From: a virus
Taxonomy: Duplodnaviria; Heunggongvirae; Uroviricota; Caudoviricetes
Direction: 5' to 3' (one strand)
IMG/VR virus record: IMGVR_UViG_3300020200_000004
DNA length: 64,000 nt
Translations under genes and position numbers: made by a program
In this document: one piece after another, positions 2,842 to 48,943 of the stretch
Position numbering within the stretch: the stretch's first letter is position 1
Layout: every line of letters begins with the position of its first letter
Notes under the pieces: generated by a model
What the model saw: the letters and a program-made list of their open reading frames with translations, nothing else
What the model was told of the DNA's origin: nothing
Database searches by the model: none

Positions 2842-3669
2842 ATGGCTGAAAATACGAAGATTCAATGGACGCACCACACGCAAAATTTTTGGGTTGGCTG
2901 TACAAAAGTAGCGCATGGCTGTAAATTCTGTTACGCTGAAGAATTAATGGCTAATCGTTACAAAAGAGTTAAATGGGGGCCAGAAGGCGTTAGGTCTAAG
3001 ACAAAGACATGGCATGATCCTATTAGATGGAATAAGAAAGCAGGCGAATTAGGCGAAAAACAGAAAGTCTTTGCTTGTTCCTTGTGCGATGTATTTGAAG
3101 ATCGCCCAGAGTTAGTCCCTTGGAGAAAAGAAGCATTTGAATTAATAGATAAATGCCCAAATTTAGACTGGTTGATGTTAACTAAAAGACCTGGCAATAT
3201 AGTTGATATGTGGCCAGATACTTTCCCCACGTTAAGAGAGAATGTCTGGTTGGGCACAAGTATTTCATTACAGGACGAAGTGGATTCTGCTGTATCTGCT
3301 TTGTTGACTGCTAAGGAATTATGCCAGTATTTGTTTTTATCAGTTGAGCCTCAGATTGGCAAAATTGATTTATCAGACTATTTGTTTCCCGAACCGTTAG
3401 TGGATTGGGTTATTGTAGGTGGGGAAAGTAAACAAGGCAAGGAAGACCCAAGGCCATTTGATATTGAATGGGGTAGGTTTTTGTTGAATCAGTGTCAAGA
3501 AGCTAGTATCCCTTGTTTCATGAAGCAATTTGGTTCTATTGTTTACGATAATGGAGTCAGGGTGCATTTTAAGGATGGGCATGGTGGTGATTGGGATGAA
3601 TGGGCAGATGAATTACGTGTAAGGGAATGTCCAGAATCTGGCAAAGAACCACAATGGAGCAAAATATAA
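2842..3669 (+). CDS. Phage Gp37/Gp68-family protein (DUF5131-like)
   Basis: N-terminus IQWTHHTQNFWVGCTKVAHGCKFCYAE matches the Gp37/Gp68 IEWT..WNP..GC...GC..CYA pattern. Confidence 0.55.
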   Translation: MAENTKIQWTHHTQNFWVGCTKVAHGCKFCYAEELMANRYKRVKWGPEGVRSKTKTWHDPIRWNKKAGELGEKQKVFACSLCDVFEDRPELVPWRKEAFELIDKCPNLDWLMLTKRPGNIVDMWPDTFPTLRENVWLGTSISLQDEVDSAVSALLTAKELCQYLFLSVEPQIGKIDLSDYLFPEPLVDWVIVGGESKQGKEDPRPFDIEWGRFLLNQCQEASIPCFMKQFGSIVYDNGVRVHFKDGHGGDWDEWADELRVRECPESGKEPQWSKI

Positions 3670-3711
3670 AACTTTTCGACAAAGAAAAATGTTTGAAGCT
3701 GTTGGCCATTC

Positions 3712-3725
3712 TTAATTGTACCAAG
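3712..3725 (+). promoter_or_regulatory. Conserved motif TTAATTGTACCAAG, copy 1
   Basis: Exact 14-mer 8 nt upstream of ATG 3733. Confidence 0.5.
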
Positions 3726-3732
3726 TAGACCC

Positions 3733-4017
3733 ATGAAAACCATTTGGCAAAAAATTGGCAGTCGAAGCGGCCCAAGAAGTGATGAATTACCAAAACAAGT
3801 TCCAGAAAAAGGGACTTGGGATGATGACCGTGGACAAATTATTGCTTACCACATTGATCAAGATGGTAATGTAACTATCGGTGACGTTTTATGGCGTCGT
3901 GGTCGATGGGAAAAGCAATATGATAATGTAACTAAAAGGGATGAAATCAATTTTTGCCTTTATGGTCCAGGCTATTCTGACTATGAGTGCACATGTGTCA
4001 AGGTAGAAGAATTTTAA
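3733..4017 (+). CDS. Hypothetical protein (94 aa)
   Basis: ORF with ATG start directly after motif copy 1. Confidence 0.4.
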   Translation: MKTIWQKIGSRSGPRSDELPKQVPEKGTWDDDRGQIIAYHIDQDGNVTIGDVLWRRGRWEKQYDNVTKRDEINFCLYGPGYSDYECTCVKVEEF

Positions 4018-4094
4018 TTGTACATTGCAATTCGCACTTCATCCGTAAAGTGACCTGTATTTTAGCTATTCAGGTGTAGAATTGCAAGAGAATT

Positions 4095-4108
4095 TTAATT
4101 GTACCAAG
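4095..4108 (+). promoter_or_regulatory. Conserved motif TTAATTGTACCAAG, copy 2; a degenerate copy ttaattgtacattg lies at 4015-4028
   Basis: Exact 14-mer in the 240-bp intergenic region upstream of the sigma-factor gene. Confidence 0.45.
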
Positions 4109-4154
4109 AAGGGCATGAACCTTTTGGTTTTTCTGTGTCTCTTGTAAAAGGAGA

Positions 4155-4182
4155 TTGACAATTTCAGCATTTTCTGTACAAT
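4155..4182 (+). promoter_or_regulatory. Host-type sigma-70 promoter (TTGACA-16-TACAAT) upstream of the sigma-factor gene
   Basis: ttgaca at 4155-4160, 16-nt spacer, tacaat at 4177-4182, about 75 nt upstream of ATG 4258. Confidence 0.5.
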
Positions 4183-30392: not shown

Positions 30393-30797
30393 ATGAGCAT
30401 TTTTGCAGATAGATTGAAAACCCTTCTTACGGTGGACAATAGCTGTTTTGCCTATACATTAAAAGAATGGGCTTATATATTACACAGACCCGTTGAGCGA
30501 ATAGAAGATTGGTTTAATGATAAAGATATACCTAGTTTTTATACTTTAAACCTTATAACTATAGTTTTTGAGCATTCCAGCGATATGAATGTGGAAGCCT
30601 TAGCCCAATTTAAAGAATTGTTTGACATGAATCCTCTTGATATATCGCCGCATGGGGCTAGAATGTTGCCTTCCCTTGGGGAATACATCAAACGCACTAT
30701 TTTTTCCGACGAATCCAGTATATTAGCAAAACTAAATAAAGATGAGCAAGCTGAATACCTATTAAATAAATATGCAAGCCAGCAAACTACCAATTGA
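30393..30797 (+). CDS. Hypothetical protein (134 aa)
   Basis: ORF. Confidence 0.35.
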   Translation: MSIFADRLKTLLTVDNSCFAYTLKEWAYILHRPVERIEDWFNDKDIPSFYTLNLITIVFEHSSDMNVEALAQFKELFDMNPLDISPHGARMLPSLGEYIKRTIFSDESSILAKLNKDEQAEYLLNKYASQQTTN

Positions 30798-39301: not shown

Positions 39302-42300
39302 ATGTCGCAATTTAAGACAGTTGAGAATTTTAAGGATATTTTAATGTTAAAAGAAAAAACTACTTTGCGATCCTATCAGCTGCTTCTATTAGATAATCAT
39401 GATTTAGTAGAAAAGACGATAGATGTTTATACAAAAGGAGCTTCTGCTTGGTTGGACTTTTGGCTTACTGTTTTGGGCGGTATAGAATTTGAGATGATTC
39501 CATTATCTCCTCTTAGCAGTTATTGTATTACTAAAAAATTAAAGAGGAAATCCCAAGAAGATAAAGAAATATTTATTCCTATTAGCGAAGAAGCTTTATT
39601 GTTTGGCTGTTGGTTTTCTTTAGAAACGAATAGCAATTCGCCATTCATTATTTCTGTTCAAGATGTTTGGAACAAGTTCAAATCTTATCTGCCGAATAAT
39701 GTGAAAATAAGCTACAATTGGGAAAGAACTATCAAAGCACAAATTAATTCCTTTGTGTCTGAGAATACTTGTTGGGTAGATAGAAGAAAAGCATTTCAAG
39801 ACCTATCATTTAAAATTAATGTTGCTGATCTTGTTTGTAAAAAAGATTTTTGGCTTAATAAAGATGTGGATAGCAAATTGTATATGAGAAGTGCCTTGGG
39901 GCAATGGTGGAATGATGGAACAAAATCAGATTGGGTTAATCTTAAAATTAAATGTGAACAGTCTATAAAATTTATCGAACAAGAATCAGATATCAGAAAT
40001 GCAAAAACAAAAATTCTACAATCTCTTGGATTGCCAGATATAGCAGAAGCTAAAGAAATTGGCAAAGCTTATGGCAAAAAAGGAAAGCCTTCCAGAGTGT
40101 TTATTAAATTGGAAAAATTAACAGAAGATACTACCAAAGACCAATTGGTTAAGGAATTTCAAGAAGAAATTGTAAACGCAGAAGAACATGTTGCTTTTAA
40201 GCGTTGTCCCTGGCATGCGAAAATTAGAGAAAACATTGAAAAAGCAATAGGTGTAAGTTATTTTAATGAAAAAGGTAATAGTAGTCAAAATAATTTTGGA
40301 GAAATGGGCAATCTTGCTCTTGAAAAAATTAAAAGTTGGAAATCTAATTTTTTTAATGTCTTAGGAGAAAGATATCATAACTGTAAATCTGATTTCCATG
40401 ATTCAGAGGTAAAAGAATGGTTTGAAGAATACAAAAAAACAAACAAACAACTTAGAAATAGCAGCCTTTCAGGACTTGAAAAAGTATTTGATTTACTAGA
40501 TAACAAGTCTTTTGAAGATGCTATTAAAGAAGCCCAAAAATCCTACAACATTCTTGGAAGAAGATTTGGAGACGCTAACTTTTTCAACTTTTTAGGCAAT
40601 AAAATTCAGTCCAGAAAGGACAAAGATTGGTTGAAATTAATACGAGAATATGATAATTGGGATAATGTAAATTACAAATTTATAAATCATAAAAGTCCAA
40701 GACTTAAGCATTTTGGGGATGATCACTTAGCCACTCCTAGATTTGGGGAGTCAAGACCAACAGGCAATATCAAAAGCACAACTGGAAATAGTCACTCAAT
40801 TACATTGAATGTTTTCGATGGCAAATCATTCAAACTGACTAAAATTAATTCTGCTTGCAAAAGATTGTCTAATGAAATTAAAGATAATCAATCAATTAGA
40901 CAGACTAAGTTATCTGGAAAAATCTTTGAAAACTATCGAATTCTTCCTAAGAGTTTAGTTAAAAAGGGTGGACTTAAACTTTGTAAACAAAATGATAAAT
41001 GGTATGCCCATCTAACAGTCAATTTGCCAGTATTTGAAAAAGCTTCATGGCAAAAATTGATGAAAACCGGCACCATAATAATGAGTATAGACCCTGGTAT
41101 TAGAAGTTCTATATCATATACTATATTTGAAATATTTGAATGTGATCGAGATACAGATTATTTTATTGAAAATGGCATTACTCATGTGAAAATACATTCA
41201 TGGGAAGATCATAGTGGTACTAAGTTTAAAGTGCCTCATAATAATTTGTGGGTTAAATTGTTGGAATGGGGACATATTCGTGATCTACAACCTATTGGCG
41301 AAAATGGTTATCGTCAGTGCAGATTAGATGGTGGAACAAACACCAATTTAGACTCAGAAGAAATAGAATTTTGGAAATATCTTTTAATAACTGGTGTTGA
41401 GCAAAAAGACATGCCTGATCCTTTGCCAAAAAGGTCTGAATATTCTAGAATTATTGCAAATTTAATTAACAAGTGGTATACAAACAAATCAAAAGAAATT
41501 ACAGATAAGGTTAAACAACTAAATATTAATGATCCTGTAGAGTTTTCAAAAACTTTACAACATGTAAGAAAAGAAAGCGATTTATCATCAGAATTATTGA
41601 TAAAGGCGTCCCAAATATTATTTGTAAATAATTCAGATAAAATTGGGAGAGGCGGGTTATCCTATGCTAGAATTAAGATGCTCCAAACACTTTCTTCTGC
41701 TTGTAATAAATTCTTAAAAGTTAAAGAAAATAATGCAGAAATTATTGAATTTCAGAATTTTCTTAGAAAGAAAATTAATGCCATAAGAACGGAACGAGTA
41801 AGAATTACTGTAAACAAAGTTTTGCATGAAGCTGTCAATAACAAAGTAAATCTAATTCTATATGAAAATACCCAACTAAAATCTTCTTCCAGTTCCCCCA
41901 GAGGTCTTAATAGAAGTATAACATCCTGGTGCCCGTCAAAAGTAATCGAAGAATTGAAAAAACAAATAGATTTGTTGCCAATTTCTATAATGGGAGTAAA
42001 CTCTGCTTATACGTCTCATAACTGTTTTGTAACTTGCAAGAAAAAATGTCGTTATGATAAAGTTCATTTAGATGATCTTAATATTGAGCCTTGGAAAGAA
42101 AGAATAACCGATATTTTTACAAAAAAACAATTAAGCTTAACTGATTGTTTGTTGAAAAAAGGTTGGGAAAATTTCCTGAAAGAAAATGACTTGATGAGCT
42201 ACAAACAAATACCTGAATTTGTTAAAAACAAAAAAGCTTTTTGTTTAGTTCCCTCCAGGACAGGAAAATTGTTTGTTACAGAAATTGGAGAATTGAATGC

Positions 42301-42364
42301 TGATATCGCCGCTGCTGCTACAATAGGAATGAAAGGTCTTGCAATAATCCTATCCAAAGCTTAA
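39302..42364 (+). CDS. cas12: Cas12-family (type V) CRISPR effector-like protein, RuvC-only single effector; subtype not assignable by eye
   Basis: 1020 aa. C-terminal RuvC split in TnpB/Cas12 order: RuvC-I IIMSIDPGIRSS (D597), RuvC-II NLILYENTQLKS (E855), Cys/His cluster HNCFVTCKKKC (906-916), RuvC-III GELNADIAAAATIGMKGL (D1001). About 590-aa N-terminal helical region. The gene lies immediately upstream of a co-oriented CRISPR array. Confidence 0.75.
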   Translation: MSQFKTVENFKDILMLKEKTTLRSYQLLLLDNHDLVEKTIDVYTKGASAWLDFWLTVLGGIEFEMIPLSPLSSYCITKKLKRKSQEDKEIFIPISEEALLFGCWFSLETNSNSPFIISVQDVWNKFKSYLPNNVKISYNWERTIKAQINSFVSENTCWVDRRKAFQDLSFKINVADLVCKKDFWLNKDVDSKLYMRSALGQWWNDGTKSDWVNLKIKCEQSIKFIEQESDIRNAKTKILQSLGLPDIAEAKEIGKAYGKKGKPSRVFIKLEKLTEDTTKDQLVKEFQEEIVNAEEHVAFKRCPWHAKIRENIEKAIGVSYFNEKGNSSQNNFGEMGNLALEKIKSWKSNFFNVLGERYHNCKSDFHDSEVKEWFEEYKKTNKQLRNSSLSGLEKVFDLLDNKSFEDAIKEAQKSYNILGRRFGDANFFNFLGNKIQSRKDKDWLKLIREYDNWDNVNYKFINHKSPRLKHFGDDHLATPRFGESRPTGNIKSTTGNSHSITLNVFDGKSFKLTKINSACKRLSNEIKDNQSIRQTKLSGKIFENYRILPKSLVKKGGLKLCKQNDKWYAHLTVNLPVFEKASWQKLMKTGTIIMSIDPGIRSSISYTIFEIFECDRDTDYFIENGITHVKIHSWEDHSGTKFKVPHNNLWVKLLEWGHIRDLQPIGENGYRQCRLDGGTNTNLDSEEIEFWKYLLITGVEQKDMPDPLPKRSEYSRIIANLINKWYTNKSKEITDKVKQLNINDPVEFSKTLQHVRKESDLSSELLIKASQILFVNNSDKIGRGGLSYARIKMLQTLSSACNKFLKVKENNAEIIEFQNFLRKKINAIRTERVRITVNKVLHEAVNNKVNLILYENTQLKSSSSSPRGLNRSITSWCPSKVIEELKKQIDLLPISIMGVNSAYTSHNCFVTCKKKCRYDKVHLDDLNIEPWKERITDIFTKKQLSLTDCLLKKGWENFLKENDLMSYKQIPEFVKNKKAFCLVPSRTGKLFVTEIGELNADIAAAATIGMKGLAIILSKA

Positions 42365-42451
42365 AATGGCTCTGTTCGTTGATCTTTGACATCTTATTTT
42401 TAAGTTTATTTTAAACAGAAAGCAAACTGTTATCAGTTTTTCTTTCTGTTC

Positions 42452-42489
42452 AGTCTCTCGCCCTTATTTAAAAATAAGGGCGAGAGACT
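42452..42489 (+). other. Perfect 15-bp-stem hairpin between the cas12-like gene and the CRISPR array (terminator-like but without a U tract)
   Basis: agtctctcgccctta-tttaaaaa-taagggcgagagact. Confidence 0.45.
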
Positions 42490-42713
42490 ATGTGGTGAAA
42501 AACGTTGGAAAAGAAAATTTTTCTTAAGTCCTGATGAATTAAGCTTTTGCGATAAAGTTATCCTGTGCTGCCTATCGCTCGTTTTAAGTCTTTATTTGAA
42601 AAAGGTTTATGGCATCAAACCAATAAAATTCGGATATGCAGTTGTTCTAAAGTAATTGCCTCTCGCATACTTGTTTGTAAGTTGTTTTATTAAAAGGCTT
42701 TATGCAAATGAGC
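42490..42713 (+). promoter_or_regulatory. AT-rich CRISPR leader (putative)
   Basis: About 220 nt AT-rich sequence directly upstream of the first, non-degenerate repeat; the degenerate repeat is at the far end of the array. Confidence 0.4.
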
Positions 42714-44534
42714 GTTGCAATAGATTAAAACAATGTGCTGTTATTGGCACTTCGGCGTCATCGTCGGCATGGCCGCCCTGGTCCTGGTTGCAATAGATTA
42801 AAACAATGTGCTGTTATTGGCACACCAATGGCCAGTTTCAGAAAAGCACTTTTTCAATGTTGCAATAGATTAAAACAATGTGCTGTTATTGGCACAAATA
42901 AAACCAGCCAGTAACCGCTATATCCGCAAAAGTTGCAATAGATTAAAACAATGTGCTGTTATTGGCACTATTTGATTGTACATTGCATTACAATCGCCGT
43001 TTTTGTTGCAATAGATTAAAACAATGTGCTGTTATTGGCACCCAAAGGCCAGTCTCCGCCTTTGGCGCTCAAGAGCGTTGCAATAGATTAAAACAATGTG
43101 CTGTTATTGGCACCGATACAATGAAAGTAATCACGTGCACGATGGCAAGGTTGCAATAGATTAAAACAATGTGCTGTTATTGGCACGTCAAATATGGAGT
43201 AGGATGAAGGGCGAATTTTGGAGTTGCAATAGATTAAAACAATGTGCTGTTATTGGCACTGGAGGCTAAGGACTAACAAGAAGAAACTAGGAATGGTTGC
43301 AATAGATTAAAACAATGTGCTGTTATTGGCACGGAGTCCAGATACCATAGTTAATTCGTTGCAATAGATTAAAACAATGTGCTGTTATTGGCACACTAAT
43401 CAGCCAATCTTCTTAGGTGTTGATCTTTCGTTGCAATAGATTAAAACAATGTGCTGTTATTGGCACCGAACCGCCCTTGCCGCCGCCGTACACCTTAATG
43501 GTGTTGCAATAGATTAAAACAATGTGCTGTTATTGGCACTATCCGCAAAAAAAGAATGTGTCAATGCAAGGGTATTGTTGCAATAGATTAAAACAATGTG
43601 CTGTTATTGGCACCCAGCTTGGCAATCTGTCCTTCAATGTGCGTTCTTTGTTGCAATAGATTAAAACAATGTGCTGTTATTGGCACTATAGTGTATGCAC
43701 CGACTAATATATAATAGTAGCGTTGCAATAGATTAAAACAATGTGCTGTTATTGGCACTTTTTGGTCCTCGTCGTGGCCGTACACGTGATCGAGGTTGCA
43801 ATAGATTAAAACAATGTGCTGTTATTGGCACTCCAGTTATTGCTTGTTACTGAGAGAAGGGCTGGGCAGCGTTGCAATAGATTAAAACAATGTGCTGTTA
43901 TTGGCACTATAGCAATCGATTATCTCCGCATCGTCCAGTAGATGTTGCAATAGATTAAAACAATGTGCTGTTATTGGCACCTGCGCAGCGTAGAAGGTTG
44001 TTTCGTCGATGACCTGGTTGCAATAGATTAAAACAATGTGCTGTTATTGGCACAAACGTGACAAAGAGGTTGCAATAGATTAAAACAATGTGCTGTTATT
44101 GGCACATGAATTCGCCAGTGGCGACATGTCGGTCCGTGTCTGGTTGCAATAGATTAAAACAATGTGCTGTTATTGGCACTTGATGCTCTGCCCCAGACTT
44201 TCGTGGAAATCCGTGTTGCAATAGATTAAAACAATGTGCTGTTATTGGCACGGCATTTGCTTAGCCACCTCCGCACTCTTACACTTCTGTTGCAATAGAT
44301 TAAAACAATGTGCTGTTATTGGCACAATGTTCCAGACTTGCTACTACCTAATATGTTTCCGTTGCAATAGATTAAAACAATGTGCTGTTATTGGCACGTG
44401 CGAAGGTTGCCGGACTGCTTATGTTGCAATAGATTAAAACAATGTGCTGTTATTGGCACTGGAACGCACTTTTTCTTTTTTGCGATGCAGCAAGGAAGTT
44501 GCAATAGATTAAAACAATGTGCTGTTATTAGCAC
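42714..44534 (+). CRISPR. CRISPR array: 26 direct repeats of 37 bp (GTTGCAATAGATTAAAACAATGTGCTGTTATTGGCAC), 25 spacers
   Basis: Most spacers 35-37 nt; outliers 39, 38, 25, 25 and 15 nt. Repeat 4 carries a 1-nt deletion. The last repeat (44498-44534) is degenerate (..TTAGCAC). A 3' stem GTGC-N8-GCAC sits in each repeat next to the spacer. Same orientation as the cas12-like gene. Confidence 0.95.
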
Positions 44535-44670
44535 TCCAAGCAGCAACATTCCTGATCGTTTAGCTGAAATTTATAGTAAAGATGATCCTGTGCCGCCTCA
44601 AGTATGGGAAGCAGTTAAAGAAGTCCGAAAAGGAATGGGCATGATGTGGCATTACGCAGGAGATTAATTT

Positions 44671-45186
44671 ATGTCATTGATTTTAGCTAAGTCTGCTCCT
44701 AAACTGGAGGTTAAAACTTTTGGTATTGTGCCAATTCCTTCATTAGAAGATGAATTGAAGCACCCCAACATATGGATTCGTACCAGAGATTCTAAAGAAG
44801 TAGATTTTGAAATAGATTTTATTGATTTTAATCAAATATTGGATTGTTATTTTGGATTTAAACCATCGGCAGACATATTTTCCATTGACGAAGAGGAGAT
44901 GGAATTTTGGTTCGGTAGTAATAATTGGGCAGAAAATTGCATTCTATTCAAATTCAAAACCAATGACGCTAATGTATTTGCCATTGATGAAACAGATTTC
45001 AAAGTAATGGCACAATATGTTTATACCAATACAGATTTAATAGCAAATGACGTAAGATTAAATTATTTGGGAAGGCATAAAAAGAAGTCAGAAAAACTAA
45101 AAAGAGGGCAAGATTTATTTGATTGGTTGCTTTCTTTGAAATTGGTCGATGGTTTTAATACAAAAAACAAAAGGCTTGCAAAATAA
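44671..45186 (+). CDS. Hypothetical protein (171 aa)
   Basis: First ORF after the array. Confidence 0.4.
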   Translation: MSLILAKSAPKLEVKTFGIVPIPSLEDELKHPNIWIRTRDSKEVDFEIDFIDFNQILDCYFGFKPSADIFSIDEEEMEFWFGSNNWAENCILFKFKTNDANVFAIDETDFKVMAQYVYTNTDLIANDVRLNYLGRHKKKSEKLKRGQDLFDWLLSLKLVDGFNTKNKRLAK

Positions 45187-45187
45187 C

Positions 45188-45904
45188 ATGACATTTTGGC
45201 AAGAAGCAAAGGGGTTGGCCAAGTCTTTATGGTTCGACCCTTTTTGGTATTTGATGTTATTTTTGATAACATTTGGGCCGGTTCTTAGTCATGGAGAATT
45301 TCCTTGGTGGACTTGGCTATGGATTCCAGGGTCTATTCTGGTTATGTTCTTTATTATATTGTGCAAGCAAAGATATGGCTACCGTTGGAATAAGGAAGAG
45401 GAAGATGCCAAAGACCCTATGCGGTATAGCGTGAAAAAAGTAAAGTTTAGCATGGAAAAAGGTGGAAATTCTGTGAATACTGAAATTATTGTTAGATATG
45501 CCAGAAAAGAAGACGCACATACTTTATATCAACTTTATAATGGCGATTGGTCTAACTTTATAATGTTGGGGCATAGTTTTTATGAATATGAAGAAATGAT
45601 ATTGGCTTCTCATGTTAAAGTAATTGGGGCTTTTAGAGAAGATGCGTTTCTTGAAATTAAAACTTCGACAGCAGTTGGAATTTTAATTGCAGTTGATGTA
45701 GTTTGCTGGGGGTATTTGGATATAATTTATGTTGATGAAGAATATAGAAAATTAGGTGTTGGCAAGAGAATGATAGATTTACTTATAGCATCTAATCCCA
45801 AATGGAAAAAACTGGAAGCTGGGGATATAAATGAGAATGAGAAGATAAAAGAAATGGGTTTTCAGTACGTTGAACCTTTAAATTGGTGCGTGAAAAGCTT
45901 ATGA
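45188..45904 (+). CDS. Membrane-anchored GNAT-family N-acetyltransferase
   Basis: Two N-terminal TM helices (LWFDPFWYLMLFLITFGPVL / LWIPGSILVMFFIILC) then GNAT motif A IIYVDEEYRKLGVGKRMIDLL. Confidence 0.55.
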   Translation: MTFWQEAKGLAKSLWFDPFWYLMLFLITFGPVLSHGEFPWWTWLWIPGSILVMFFIILCKQRYGYRWNKEEEDAKDPMRYSVKKVKFSMEKGGNSVNTEIIVRYARKEDAHTLYQLYNGDWSNFIMLGHSFYEYEEMILASHVKVIGAFREDAFLEIKTSTAVGILIAVDVVCWGYLDIIYVDEEYRKLGVGKRMIDLLIASNPKWKKLEAGDINENEKIKEMGFQYVEPLNWCVKSL

Positions 45905-46077
45905 TAACAAGTGATGATCCTCTTACTGCAAAATTGATAAAGCTTTTGAACCGGGCACATGATATAATATGGCTCAATGCTTTAGAACCTATTTATAAAG
46001 AAGAGGTTTTGTCACAAGCAGAAATTGAAGCTTTTCTGATGGAAGTTGAGGAAGTAATATATAAGCCAAACCCAAAA

Positions 46078-46151
46078 GCCCCTGTAGTTTAATTGTGCAA
46101 AACGTGCTACTTTAGATAGCTAAGATGTGGGTTCGAATCCTGCCAGGGGCG
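46078..46151 (+). tRNA. tRNA with predicted anticodon UUA (ochre/UAA-suppressor-type)
   Basis: Cloverleaf by hand: acceptor gcccctg/caggggc, D-stem gttt/aaac, anticodon stem gcta/tagc with loop cTTTAga (U33, anticodon TTA, R37), variable loop aagat, T-arm gtggg-ttcgaat-cctgc. One t-t mismatch at the top of the anticodon stem. Confidence 0.5.
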
Positions 46152-46180
46152 TTAGTTTCATTGCATATTTACTATGATAT

Positions 46181-46651
46181 GTGATGAAGAAAACAAAACC
46201 AACACAACTTAATGAACAAATATTACAAAAAATAATTCCAAATTGTATTTCTTACAGCGAAGTGTTTAGGCAATTAGGTATGGTTCCTGCTGGTGCCAAT
46301 TATAGAACCTTGCATAAGTATGTTAAATTATGGAATATTGATGTATCTCACATTGAGGCACGTACTTGGCATAAACATATAAGTAATGGGAGGGGCAGAC
46401 CTTTAGAAGAAATTTTGGTTAAAGGCAGATTCGAGACGGGACACATTCTAAAAAAAAGACTTATAGCAGCAGGAATCAAAAAACATGCTTGCGAAGGATG
46501 TGGTTTAACTGAATGGCGTGGCAAGTCAATTCCTTTAGAAGTTCACCATAAAGACGGGGATAGGAATAACAACTTGCTTGTAAGTCTTGTGATGAAAAAA
46601 ACCGAAAAACAAAAATTTCTTGGCCATCCTGTGAAGAACTTCAATCAATGA
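46181..46651 (+). CDS. HNH homing endonuclease; the reading frame appears broken near 46578, and the C-terminal part continues in another frame to about 46750
   Basis: CEGCG...LEVHHKDGDRNNNL (HNH core). After NNLL the +1 frame reads CKSCDEKNRKT...AVGRQLGVSDRAVHKRLKNH, the usual ..NLQLLCKSC.. plus HTH tail of these enzymes. Confidence 0.6.
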   Translation: MMKKTKPTQLNEQILQKIIPNCISYSEVFRQLGMVPAGANYRTLHKYVKLWNIDVSHIEARTWHKHISNGRGRPLEEILVKGRFETGHILKKRLIAAGIKKHACEGCGLTEWRGKSIPLEVHHKDGDRNNNLLVSLVMKKTEKQKFLGHPVKNFNQ

Positions 46652-46732
46652 TAAAATCTTCTTCATTTTTAGCTGTTGGAAGGCAATTAGGAGTTTCAGA
46701 TAGGGCAGTTCATAAGCGGTTAAAGAATCATT

Positions 46733-47401
46733 GTGGAATCAAAAATGAGTAAAATTAAAGTTTTAACTATAGAAGAAGCTATGTGGAATATAGGCCAATA
46801 TAAACCTAGCAAAGTCAGACTTCCAAAGAAACTAGTTGAAATTGGAAAACTGAAAATCCATGCAGACACACAATATTACGATGCCTTTGCTAATTATTAT
46901 AGCAGGCTAAAAACTCAATTGCCACATGATAAGTTCTGGCAAATAATTGAATTTCTAAGAAAGCTAATCGCAAATCGTGGTTTCACCTATGACAAATTAA
47001 AAACTTCCATAGATGAATTGTTCCGGCTAACTGCAACTGGAGAAAGCGAACACCCTGAAGGTGGTTTTGATGGTCCACATGTTGCATATAATTTCAAGGA
47101 CTTATTGCAGTTCTGCTTTACATATGAAGGAATTTCCGATAAAATAGACCAGAAGCTTGATGACTTTTCTCTTGGCAGTGATGATTCTAGAGGCGATTTG
47201 ATGGATTCACTGCCCTTGGCTGGTGTAAAAGTGTACGAAAATATACTAAATGGCACAGTCAAGAATGAGCAAGATTTAGAAAAAGAATTGAAGTCATTGG
47301 CTAAAAAATGGTATGAGTTTATCCGAAATGGCGAAAACTATGTGTGGATGACATTAAAGGAAGAAGCGGCAAGTAGAGCCTTAAATCTAATGATGGAGTA
47401 A
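46733..47401 (+). CDS. Hypothetical protein (222 aa)
   Basis: ORF. Confidence 0.4.
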   Translation: MESKMSKIKVLTIEEAMWNIGQYKPSKVRLPKKLVEIGKLKIHADTQYYDAFANYYSRLKTQLPHDKFWQIIEFLRKLIANRGFTYDKLKTSIDELFRLTATGESEHPEGGFDGPHVAYNFKDLLQFCFTYEGISDKIDQKLDDFSLGSDDSRGDLMDSLPLAGVKVYENILNGTVKNEQDLEKELKSLAKKWYEFIRNGENYVWMTLKEEAASRALNLMME

Positions 47402-47402
47402 C

Positions 47403-48095
47403 ATGAAAGATTATCTAAGAACAATTAACTTGGGGTAGGGAGTCGGTGAATCTGGCAAGCAAGCATGTTGGATGAGCGCTCTTTCTGCTCATTTGGGTGG
47501 GGAATGGACCGATACATTAGATTGCGTTGATCCTATCATTAATAGCCTTTGCATAATTATTAATGATCTTTATTATATGGACAATAAGGGCAGAACCAAT
47601 GACATTATGAAATTTGGTTTGTTTGCTCCATTGGGAACTAAAGGCACTTGGAAAGATACTGAGAAAAGACTATTTAAACTTGCGGATATTGCTATAAGAA
47701 AATGGGCAGCAACCGTGAGTTTTCATACAGGATTTATACAAGATGAAAAATTCCTAAGAAATTTGGATGAAATTGTAGATTTGCCTAGTCTTCGTAAAGC
47801 TAGAAATGATATTGAAATTGCAGCTTGTTATTTAATGAGTGAATTGGACATAATAATTTATCATATAAAAGGCATTTTGATAATCCACGAAACTTGCAAG
47901 AGAGAAATGATAGCTAATTTATATAAGTTTACTGGAATTTTGATAGATCATATGGGTAGAAACGTTCTCGTAAAAGATCATTTATATTCTGCACTAAGAG
48001 AACTAATTGAAATGGGTCCACATGCACCAGAAGAACCTGAATATCCTGCTTGTGGTATTCCAAAGTTTCAAGAACTAGTAGGTATTAAAACATAA
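47403..48095 (+). CDS. Paralog family A member with an in-frame TAG at codon 12 (pseudogene, internal restart at 47472, or stop-codon readthrough)
   Basis: MKDYLRTINLG-TAG-GVGESGKQACWMSALSAHLGGEWTDTLDCVDPIINS... The paralogs have Ile/Phe at the TAG position. C-terminus LIEMGPHAPEEPEYPACGIPKFQELVGI is shared with 48392..48943. Confidence 0.45.
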
Positions 48096-48110
48096 ACTAA
48101 AAGAATTAGT

Positions 48111-48136
48111 GGATTAAAACAATGTGCTGCTGGCAC
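48111..48136 (+). repeat. Orphan degenerate CRISPR repeat (solitary repeat unit) about 3.6 kb downstream of the array
   Basis: ggattaaaacaatgtgctg-ctggcac versus array repeat agattaaaacaatgtgctgttattggcac (18 nt exact, then a 3-4 nt deletion); intergenic between two paralog genes. Confidence 0.55.
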
Positions 48137-48147
48137 ATAGGTATTAA

Positions 48148-48390
48148 ATGTCAAAGTTAACTGTTAGGACTATCTTTAATGGTGCAATGAATGCCAAGTA
48201 TGAAGTTAGTATTCCTCTTAACAAGAAAGAAACAGAGGAACTTAAAAGTGCTTTGGAAGTGGTAAGAAAGTATGAGAAACAAGCTTTAGACGCCACAAAG
48301 GTATCTAGAAAGACAGAAGCAGTTGTAATTGATTATCTGGTTAAATCAAATAGTGTGCTTATCTCTGTTGAAGCTGGAGGTTTTGGTTAA
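48148..48390 (+). CDS. Hypothetical protein (80 aa)
   Basis: ORF starting 12 nt after the orphan repeat. Confidence 0.35.
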   Translation: MSKLTVRTIFNGAMNAKYEVSIPLNKKETEELKSALEVVRKYEKQALDATKVSRKTEAVVIDYLVKSNSVLISVEAGGFG

Positions 48391-48391
48391 A

Positions 48392-48943
48392 ATGAATGAT
48401 TATCTTAAAACAATCAAGCTAGGATTTGGCAAAGGCAAAAGGGGAGAACAAGGATGTTGGATGAGGGTGTTCCACATTGCAGATACTGTTATTAGAGAGT
48501 GGACGCCAACTGTGTTAAGAAATTATTGGCACGGTTTACGGATCGGTTGTCCAATGCACCTTTTATATCAAAAAATTGCTGATAAATTAGAAGAAATGCC
48601 TAAAATTTCAAAAGAAACATCTAAACTTTATCGTGTTTTAGATACTTTAAATGAAATGGAAATTAAAGAATTAAAATCTGCAAAAACTATTATTATGGCT
48701 GCATGTTTTCTTTCCATTAAACATAGTCGTATAATGTGTGATGGCATTGCCGATTCCGTTGTTGGCACATTTCCTTGGCCTTGGTTAGAATTGAATGCCG
48801 ACCGTGATCATAGAAAATACCTAAAGACCAAAGTTTACCCATTGTTAAGAGAACTAATCGAAATGGGACCACATGCACCAAAAGAATCAGAATATCCTGC
48901 TTGTGGTGTACAAAAGTTCAAGGAAGCGGTGGGAATAGTTTAA
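48392..48943 (+). CDS. Paralog family A member, intact (183 aa)
   Basis: MNDYLKTIKLGFGKGKRGEQGCWM... ...LIEMGPHAPKESEYPACGVQKFKEAVGIV; GGAGG RBS. Confidence 0.5.
   Translation: MNDYLKTIKLGFGKGKRGEQGCWMRVFHIADTVIREWTPTVLRNYWHGLRIGCPMHLLYQKIADKLEEMPKISKETSKLYRVLDTLNEMEIKELKSAKTIIMAACFLSIKHSRIMCDGIADSVVGTFPWPWLELNADRDHRKYLKTKVYPLLRELIEMGPHAPKESEYPACGVQKFKEAVGIV

Follow-up and report, generated by a model that had tools for sequence, protein, structure and literature searches.

A solitary Cas12i-type CRISPR repeat between phage genes, most likely a rearrangement scar that keeps its CRISPR RNA handle

The 64,000-nt stretch of Caudoviricetes DNA analysed here (IMG/VR record IMGVR_UViG_3300020200_000004; hereafter the window, which the phage genome exceeds) carries a CRISPR array with a Cas12-type effector gene and, some distance beyond the array, a solitary degenerate copy of the array repeat (48112-48136, + strand). 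This orphan repeat belongs to the already known class of orphan or solitary CRISPR repeats. In the most likely reading, to which we give a probability of about 0.5, it is the scar of a microhomology-mediated rearrangement that still bears a full Cas12i CRISPR RNA (crRNA) handle. Four points are directly established: the identity with the array repeat, a chimeric junction with a protein-gene end, the family of the effector, and the lack of other copies or targets in the window. We infer, in addition, that the orphan is probably transcribed, that it may be bound and cut, and that it is probably neutral.

The orphan repeat derives from the array

The CRISPR array (42714-44534, + strand) comprises 26 repeats of 37 nt, with the sequence GTTGCAATAGATTAAAACAATGTGCTGTTATTGGCAC, and 25 spacers. 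The last of the 26 copies carries a G to A change, and since this degenerate repeat lies at the far end, the array is taken to be transcribed from left to right. The orphan is found on the same strand, 3,578 nt past the end of the last repeat, in a 52-nt intergenic gap between the stop codon of a phage gene, paralog 1 (48093-48095), and the ATG at 48148 of a gene for an 80-aa protein. Its first 18 nt, GATTAAAACAATGTGCTG at 48112-48129 (+), are identical to repeat positions 10-27. A single C then replaces the loop TTAT, a net deletion of 3 nt, and TGGCAC at 48131-48136 reproduces the final 6 nt of the repeat. The unit thus corresponds to the 3′-terminal 28 nt of the repeat, 24 of 28 positions being identical in a gapped comparison. 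Upstream of it the resemblance stops: base 48111 is G where the array repeat has A, and the initial 9 nt of the repeat are not conserved (3/9 match). By BLASTN, the orphan matches the array repeat over 18 nt at 100% identity, with 36.2 bits and 49% coverage. The first-pass annotation, made from the letters alone, had described an 18-nt match plus the GGCAC end with a 3-4 nt deletion, 3.6 kb from the array and in a 52-bp gap ahead of the gene at 48148; all of these details are borne out.

The orphan is a real derivative of the array repeat, and chance resemblance is excluded. When three or fewer mismatches are allowed, the 18-mer has 27 matches in the window, namely the 26 array repeats and the orphan, against 0.15 expected. 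Among 241 million metagenome records, the exact 18-mer occurs 14 times, each time as a single unrelated sequence, and none of the 14 extends into the hairpin. A 20-mer specific to the orphan variant has seven single matches in GTDB genomes, all in coding-like sequence and none in arrays. Rfam has no match at the orphan, and neither the repeat nor the orphan has a match in IMG/VR.

The further solitary repeats that the first-pass annotation had proposed to look for, and whose absence it counted against its own proposal, did not appear. A scan of the 64-kb window, which the phage genome exceeds, for the GTGC...GCAC hairpin motif returned nothing outside the array and the orphan, and no additional solitary unit or anti-repeat-like sequence scored above chance. 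Two candidates were discarded. The first, at 30454-30473 (+; ATACATTAAAAGAATGGGCT), agrees with repeat positions 7-26 at 17 of 20 bases, has no hairpin, scores at the level of shuffled sequence and is probably a chance match. The second was a degenerate repeat following the orphan, which would have made a mini-array; its gapped score of 28 is equalled or exceeded by 253 of 2063 window tiles, and the 60 nt downstream of the orphan score at background level against the repeat.

The effector is a divergent Cas12i

The effector gene (39302-42364, + strand) encodes 1020 aa, with gene callers placing the start 14 codons later. The Cas12i hidden Markov models (HMMs) of PADLOC match its RuvC half with E=4e-24, followed by Cas12b models at 9e-17. 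An exhaustive HMMER search of 1.8 billion cluster representatives yielded 38 relatives, the closest 40% identical. A profile built from 12 of these relatives (A3) aligned over its full length with Cas12i2 (6LTP; positions 5-974 against 4-966, E=4e-45), and the RuvC triad D597, E855 and D1001 is invariant in the alignment of the 12 relatives. Given the PADLOC models, the 38 relatives and the end-to-end alignment to Cas12i2, the effector belongs, by sequence homology, to the Cas12i family (type V-I), of which it is a strongly divergent member. Its divergence is also apparent from the searches that found little: no match in Pfam, and no Cas12i among PDB sequences searched with phmmer, where the only hit was a marginal C2c1-like chain (E=0.14). 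In the N-terminal half, the profile matches a 1496-aa PDB chain (9KLN, 'C2c1 ... RuvC-like') best, with Cas12i2 ranking behind it. Among 5.8 billion proteins, the effector is the sole member of its 90%-identity cluster.

Other features also fit a type V-I system. Besides full-length Cas12i homology and the RuvC triad, we found a repeat with a terminal stem-loop and tail, and no anti-repeat elsewhere in the window. Like Cas12i1 and Cas12i2, the effector is accompanied by a 37-nt repeat with a terminal hairpin and a GGCAC end, and it is homologous to Cas12i2 over its full length (PMC8190297, PMC7567891); it differs from them in being so divergent that Cas12i is recognized by profile only, not by phmmer against PDB. 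None of the called genes within 10 kb on either side of the effector has a Pfam match to Cas1, Cas2 or Cas4. Huge phages likewise carry type V-I systems devoid of adaptation genes, and the present locus resembles most of them in this respect (PMC7162821).

The orphan retains a complete crRNA handle

In Cas12i1 and Cas12i2, pre-crRNA is self-processed by a cut between positions -24 and -23, and the mature crRNA retains a 23-nt tag made of a 6-nt tail and the stem-loop; bases -23 to -21 are essential, while the enzymes can do without anything 5′ of the cut (PMC7567891, PMC8190297). The orphan retains repeat positions -28 to -1 apart from the loop, and so keeps the equivalent of this tag. The entire tail region (GAUUAAAACAAU) and both stem arms, GUGCU and GGCAC, are intact. 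On the model of these enzymes, the surviving piece would amount to the whole crRNA handle, tail AACAAU plus stem.

The minimum-free-energy fold of the array repeat is a hairpin of 6 bp with a 4-nt loop that closes at the last base, C(-1), as the hairpins of Cas12i1 and Cas12i2 repeats also do (PMC7567891, PMC8190297, PMC9122993). For the orphan, a hairpin of 5 bp with a 3-nt loop is predicted at 48124-48136 (+; GUGCU-GCU-GGCAC), extended to 7 bp in its context by pairing of 48122-48123 with 48137-48138 (AU). At 13 nt, it is shorter than the 16-nt hairpin of the phage's own repeat and than the 16-17 nt seen when related arrays are included.

These related arrays belong to three contigs with distant Cas12i-like effectors, 25-30% identical to that of the window: L033 (array at 3525-4166, repeat GTCGTCACACCGAAACAACTAGTGCCGGACTTGGCAC), L034 (8279-8416, ATAGAATGTGCCGTATATGGGCAC) and L043 (3140-3705, GTTGCAATGCCTAATCAAATTGTGTCGATATGGACAC). 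The layout AAACAA...GTGC...GGCAC is common to the repeats of related effectors. Short or 5′-truncated repeats that keep the hairpin occur in all three arrays, and in L034 and L043 the tail is kept as well. In L043, a truncated repeat at 3403-3428 retains the last 26 nt; in L033, one at 3606-3623 retains the last 18 nt, and the array ends in two identical degenerate units of 51 nt. The repeats of L034 are all short (~24 nt), spaced 50-59 nt apart in a mini-array. Since hairpin-bearing truncated repeats are present in each of the three arrays, units reduced to the handle appear to be recurrent and tolerated in the Cas12i-like family.

In being a single repeat unit on the array strand, past the distal (old) end and with an indel, the orphan resembles the degenerate repeats left by array decay, such as the truncated units of L033 (3606-3623 and the two terminal units), L034 and L043 (3403-3428). 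It differs from them in lying 3.6 kb outside the array, with seven called genes and one tRNA gene in between, and in being bounded on the left by a microhomology junction, still visible, with a protein-gene 3′ end.

A microhomology junction marks the left boundary

Paralog 1 ends in AAGAACTAGTAGGTATTAAAACA (copy A, 48070-48092, + strand), the native final codons of the gene, which are homologous to gene ends in the contigs L009 and L007 and in a second family member downstream in the window, paralog 2. A degenerate duplicate or remnant of a paralog-family 3′ end follows at 48101-48121 (+; copy B, AAGAATTAGTGGATTAAAACA). In a local alignment, copies A and B share 20 matches over 24 columns with two 1-nt gaps (score 29), a score reached by none of 2000 shuffles, whose maximum was 25; copy B is also similar to the L009 gene ends CAAGAATTAGTTGGAATTAGCACA. 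Copy B overlaps the first 10 nt of the orphan, and the 9-mer ATTAAAACA is common to the paralog gene end and the CRISPR repeat. Past this 9-mer, the sequence continues as the repeat does (ATGTGCTG..TGGCAC) and not as the gene does (TAA...). Copy B, the shared 9-mer and the continuation as repeat together identify the orphan as a chimera with an in-register join at a microhomology. This junction accounts for the sharp left boundary at -28, which need not reflect selection.

A third partial copy of the gene end lies to the right of the orphan: TAGGTATTAAA at 48138-48148 (+; copy C) is identical to 48079-48089 within copy A, and its final nucleotide doubles as the A of the 48148 ATG. Only these two exact copies exist in the window (shuffle P ~0.0075). 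Three partial gene-end copies are therefore arranged ~30 nt apart, with the repeat piece spliced into the middle one.

We propose that illegitimate recombination between the array and a paralog-family gene 3′ end, joined within the 9-mer ATTAAAACA, would have produced the orphan, leaving a degenerate gene-end copy to the left of the join and the 3′ part of the repeat to its right. The join may have arisen by template switching during local triplication or duplication of the gene end. Alternatively, a 3.6-kb cassette (44535-48111) may have been inserted into the distal end of an older array, stranding the old terminal repeat, with the right-hand crossover at ATTAAAACA. Both routes fit the anatomy and we prefer neither. 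Other signs of rearrangement are seen near the array, including three truncated spacers (25, 15 and 25 nt, most others being 35-37 nt) and a 3′ fragment of an open reading frame (ORF) after the last repeat; the intervening 3.6 kb hold an HNH endonuclease gene and a tRNA gene, and paralog 1 contains a nonsense codon. Between paralog-family genes of other phages (L006, L007 and L009), we found neither a repeat-like element nor a homologue of the 80-aa gene. That the orphan might be a relic of array rearrangement had been offered in the first-pass annotation as the alternative to a function; the 9-nt microhomology chimera amid three gene-end copies gives direct support to it.

Several points weigh against an origin as a mere scar. 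The retained interval, -28 to -1, spans what Cas12i enzymes keep and need (PMC7567891, PMC8190297), and a change limited to the loop, with stem and tail intact, is also expected under selection for function. The orphan ends 11 nt ahead of a start codon, where binding would matter. It is identical in contigs of at least six metagenome samples, though the rest of the genome is identical too. Copy C, TAGGTATTAAA, is unexplained by a simple recombination between two partners. Finally, an origin as a scar may be compatible with later co-option.

Possible activity of the handle and alternative explanations

Since the orphan lies in sense orientation inside a string of + strand genes, it is probably carried on a polycistronic mRNA. 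No + strand terminator was found between the upstream genes and the orphan, nor any + strand promoter within ~250 nt upstream of it (sigma-70-like consensus; phage promoters may differ). The nearest + strand sigma-70-like match (47825-47854, 9/12) is ~260 nt upstream, inside paralog 1, and such matches occur in general at background frequency (13 against 8.4 expected). If the shortened hairpin is accepted, a Cas12i-like enzyme would cut the transcript near 48116-48118 and might then stay bound. Its 'guide' would be the ribosome-binding region and start of the 80-aa gene, whose AUG lies 12 nt after the handle. The 36 nt that follow the orphan (48137-48172, +), here termed the pseudo-spacer, cover the 5′ untranslated region and the first 8 codons of this gene. 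A second target for it was not found in the window, the best matches (22/36 and 15/20) being at background. No self-cleavage is expected, because the guide matches only its own locus, where, as within the array, the repeat end CAC stands at the position of the protospacer adjacent motif (PAM) in place of TTN, the Cas12i PAM (PMC8190297). We regard such handle activity as a tolerated by-product and not as an evolved device. The first-pass proposal that the effector could bind or process the unit, with the start of the gene at 48148 as pseudo-spacer, is plausible in mechanism: the Cas12i family of the effector, the tail and stem arms and the orientation speak in favour. The absence of a close promoter and of a second pseudo-spacer target, and a hairpin that falls 3 nt below the canonical length, do not.

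The alternative that survives best, which we nevertheless consider rather unlikely, is an orphan that evolution has shaped into a cis-regulatory solitary repeat. Cleavage of the operon mRNA by the effector would fall between paralog 1 and the 80-aa gene; clamped on the new 5′ end, the effector would then cover the ribosome-binding region and AUG of the 80-aa gene, so that this gene, perhaps together with the abutting paralog 2, would be expressed according to effector abundance. Self-processing by Cas12i, for which the bases that immediately follow the cut are needed but those before it are not (PMC7567891), is consistent with such a device. So are the complete tail and stem arms with a change confined to the loop, the persistence of tail-plus-hairpin repeats in arrays of related effectors, the sense orientation behind a terminator-free stretch, the AUG 12 nt from the handle, and the 80-aa gene stop codon that abuts the paralog 2 ATG. 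However, the anatomy of the junction indicates an accident, and the 13-nt hairpin is below the 16-17 nt of all hairpins seen in the family (including PMC7567891 and PMC8190297). The catalytic histidine pair of Cas12i2 (H485/H486) has no obvious counterpart in the effector, falling opposite K-L in a rough alignment; this is not decisive on self-processing, because Cas12i1 and Cas12i2 do not have the same RNase site. The gene downstream, encoding 80 aa, is an ORFan without a known role. Conservation offers no signal either: each contig with the effector, the 80-aa gene or paralog 1 matches the window at 100% identity, and no divergent relative of the phage was found. For the more specific version, in which a stray Cas12i repeat was co-opted as a cis-switch that ties the 80-aa gene and the abutting paralog to the amount of free effector, our estimate is a little lower, and we hold it to be unlikely.

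Solitary repeat units (SRUs) of phages can act as RNA anti-CRISPRs (Racrs), often beside acr genes and sometimes bicistronic with them (PMC10651486). By analogy, the orphan could be a decoy that soaks up Cas12i-type effectors of a rival phage or of the host, or the phage's own effector as a brake, and it might be paired with a gene for a small anti-CRISPR protein. It shares with the SRUs and Racrs of Camara-Wilpert et al. 2023 (PMC10651486) the character of a single intergenic phage unit with its hairpin kept and a small gene, here an ORFan, directly downstream. In contrast, the described candidates reside in elements without cognate cas genes and follow their own promoter (PMC10651486), which for a Racr would lie within 250 bp and yield a small RNA. 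In this phage the orphan has the cognate effector gene and an array of 26 repeats 3.6 kb upstream, and no promoter was detected within ~250 nt upstream of the orphan. A decoy is awkward in a phage that carries the cognate system, since it would blunt that system. The 80-aa protein, moreover, has no detectable similarity to anything. SRUFinder asks for an intergenic unit with no other full or partial repeat within 100 bp, matched to a known repeat with ≥90% identity, ≥50% coverage and ≥41.1 bits (PMC10651486). The orphan is intergenic and isolated in this sense, but its 36.2 bits and 49% coverage fall short of the match thresholds. Overall, we consider a Racr-like decoy very unlikely.

A role as crRNA-like RNA (crlRNA), after the manner of CreA/CreR, appears highly improbable. 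In this scheme the pseudo-spacer would guide a non-cleaving effector to partly matching DNA and thereby repress transcription. As in known crlRNAs, a degenerate repeat with a non-acquired 'spacer' near cas genes could load a non-cleaving guide, and crlRNAs function through limited pairing (bioRxiv 10.1101/2024.12.27.630466). The long form of the trans-activating CRISPR RNA (tracrRNA) that autoregulates Cas9 offers a similar parallel. Bases 2-12 of the pseudo-spacer do match 48079-48089, 59 nt upstream on the same strand, and these 11 nt are fewer than the 14 bp that Cas12i2 requires for activation of cleavage (PMC7567891). Nevertheless, the flank of this site is CTA (48075-48077) and not a Cas12i TTN PAM (PMC8190297), position 1 is mismatched, and the site falls in the last codons of a gene and not in a recognizable promoter, unlike the PAM-flanked partial targets in promoters of crlRNAs, whose cited examples come from class 1 (type I-C) systems. 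The local triplication described above is the better explanation of the match, and the window holds no other partial target.

The - strand of the orphan would pair with the repeat except for a 3-nt bulge, and no other anti-repeat-like sequence exists in the window. On this strand the unit resembles a hairpin followed by a T-rich run, with a weak promoter-like site at 48197-48169, ~30 nt upstream. The orphan could thus be taken for a tracrRNA anti-repeat. We disfavour this explanation to the point of finding it scarcely credible, because Cas12i effectors are tracrRNA-independent, crRNA alone being sufficient (PMC7567891, PMC9122993), and because the terminator-like look of the - strand is common to all 26 array repeats. 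The effector is thus not of a tracrRNA-dependent family, its repeat, like those of Cas12i1 and Cas12i2, ends in a hairpin of its own, promoter-like matches are at background frequency, and the neighbouring genes are all on the + strand. Chance resemblance without any relation to the array, to which the derivation of the first 10 nt from the paralog 3′ end might seem to lend some credit, is negligible given that eight further bases (ATGTGCTG) and then TGGCAC follow the repeat in register, and given the window and metagenome counts above.

Array, neighbouring genes and related contigs

A leader of 349 nt (42365-42713, + strand) with a strong hairpin at 42450-42492 separates the effector gene from the first repeat. 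None of the 25 spacers has a protospacer in 50,697 phage records or in the window. The spacers (42751-44497) have a higher GC content than the phage, and some form similarity families: those at 42824 and 43042, at 43395 and 43614, and at 43467 and 43759 resemble each other, which explains the periods of 145 and 218 given by Tandem Repeats Finder, and those at 42896 and 43540 have TATCCGCAAAA in common. Several spacers seem to be directed against sites that are homologous among related targets; alternatively, segmental duplication may have enlarged the array. The ORF-like 3′ fragment directly after the last repeat (44535-44667, ending in DRLAEIYSKDDPVPPQVWEAVKEVRKGMGMMWHYAGD and a stop codon) resembles a gene tail severed by the array or by an insertion.

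The window has a GC content of ~35%. In the annotated 23 kb (29344-52364), which include rIIB and endonuclease VII homologues, all called genes but one lie on the + strand. The genes between array and orphan (44535-48111) include those for a GNAT acetyltransferase, a suppressor tRNA, an HNH endonuclease and paralog 1. The tRNA gene (46078-46151, +), classed as 'tRNA-Stop' by ARAGORN and scoring 57 bits with the Rfam tRNA model, has the anticodon TTA of an ochre-type suppressor. Its U34 could read both UAA and UAG.

Paralog 1 (47403-48095, + strand) belongs to a phage gene family without assigned function. The first-pass annotation gave it this span, which needs a correction: codon 12 (47436-47438) is an in-frame TAG, and the start set by gene callers is 47472. 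Homologues have L, H or F at this codon, and the 11 N-terminal codons before it are still conserved with the family. Paralog 1 may therefore be a fresh pseudogene or a gene that restarts (ORF from 47472), or the codon may be read through by the nearby suppressor tRNA. Wholesale stop recoding is an unlikely cause, because TAA is the commonest stop in the window: it ends 53 of 92 crude ORFs, against 10 of 92 for TAG.

Directly downstream of the orphan is the 80-aa ORFan gene (48148-48390, +), followed by paralog 2 (48392-48943, +). The 80-aa protein has no match in Pfam or PHROG and no homologue but itself among 5.8 billion proteins; its AlphaFold2 model, with a predicted local distance difference test (pLDDT) score of 48.6, is unusable for a fold search. 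Members of the paralog family occur as tandem genes in other phage contigs. One of these (L009 1-2768, Joint Genome Institute (JGI) metagenome 3300076146) has at least four tandem copies, in which a long Ala-rich low-complexity repeat region (GCTGCTGATGCTGCT...) separates conserved N- and C-termini. Its intergenic spacers are ~60-70 nt long and similar to each other, with a AATTGTACC motif that is also present after paralog 2 in the window.

The window matches contig Ga0194131_10000472 of JGI metagenome 3300020193, along with identical contigs from other samples, while INPHARED contains neither a near match of the phage nor a homologue of the effector. Contigs of several independent assemblies (ERZ27247963 of ENA, JGI 3300020197 and 3300020220, and Logan SRR7990525 and SRR7053050) all begin inside paralog 1, in a narrow interval at ~47486-47503. 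Such near-identical starts suggest population heterogeneity or a repeat just upstream that breaks assemblies.

Implications

As a scar, the orphan documents the reshaping of phage arrays that lack Cas1-Cas2: a 9-nt microhomology between a repeat and a gene end sufficed to place an entire crRNA handle within an operon. Such accidents are likely the raw material from which solitary-repeat regulators and RNA anti-CRISPRs arise, of which, to our knowledge, no natural example has been described for a type V effector consisting of a single protein. With 36.2 bits at 49% coverage, the orphan also illustrates that units of this kind would escape standard SRU finders. If the co-opted switch were true, it would be a natural instance in which a type V effector processes the mRNA of a non-CRISPR gene and regulates its translation. 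The locus, being compact (the effector plus ~500 bp), can readily be synthesized and would provide a convenient test of Cas12i action on a handle-bearing mRNA and of the tolerance of Cas12i for a hairpin 3 nt shorter. Its chief value lies in being a clean example of how handle-bearing solitary repeats arise.

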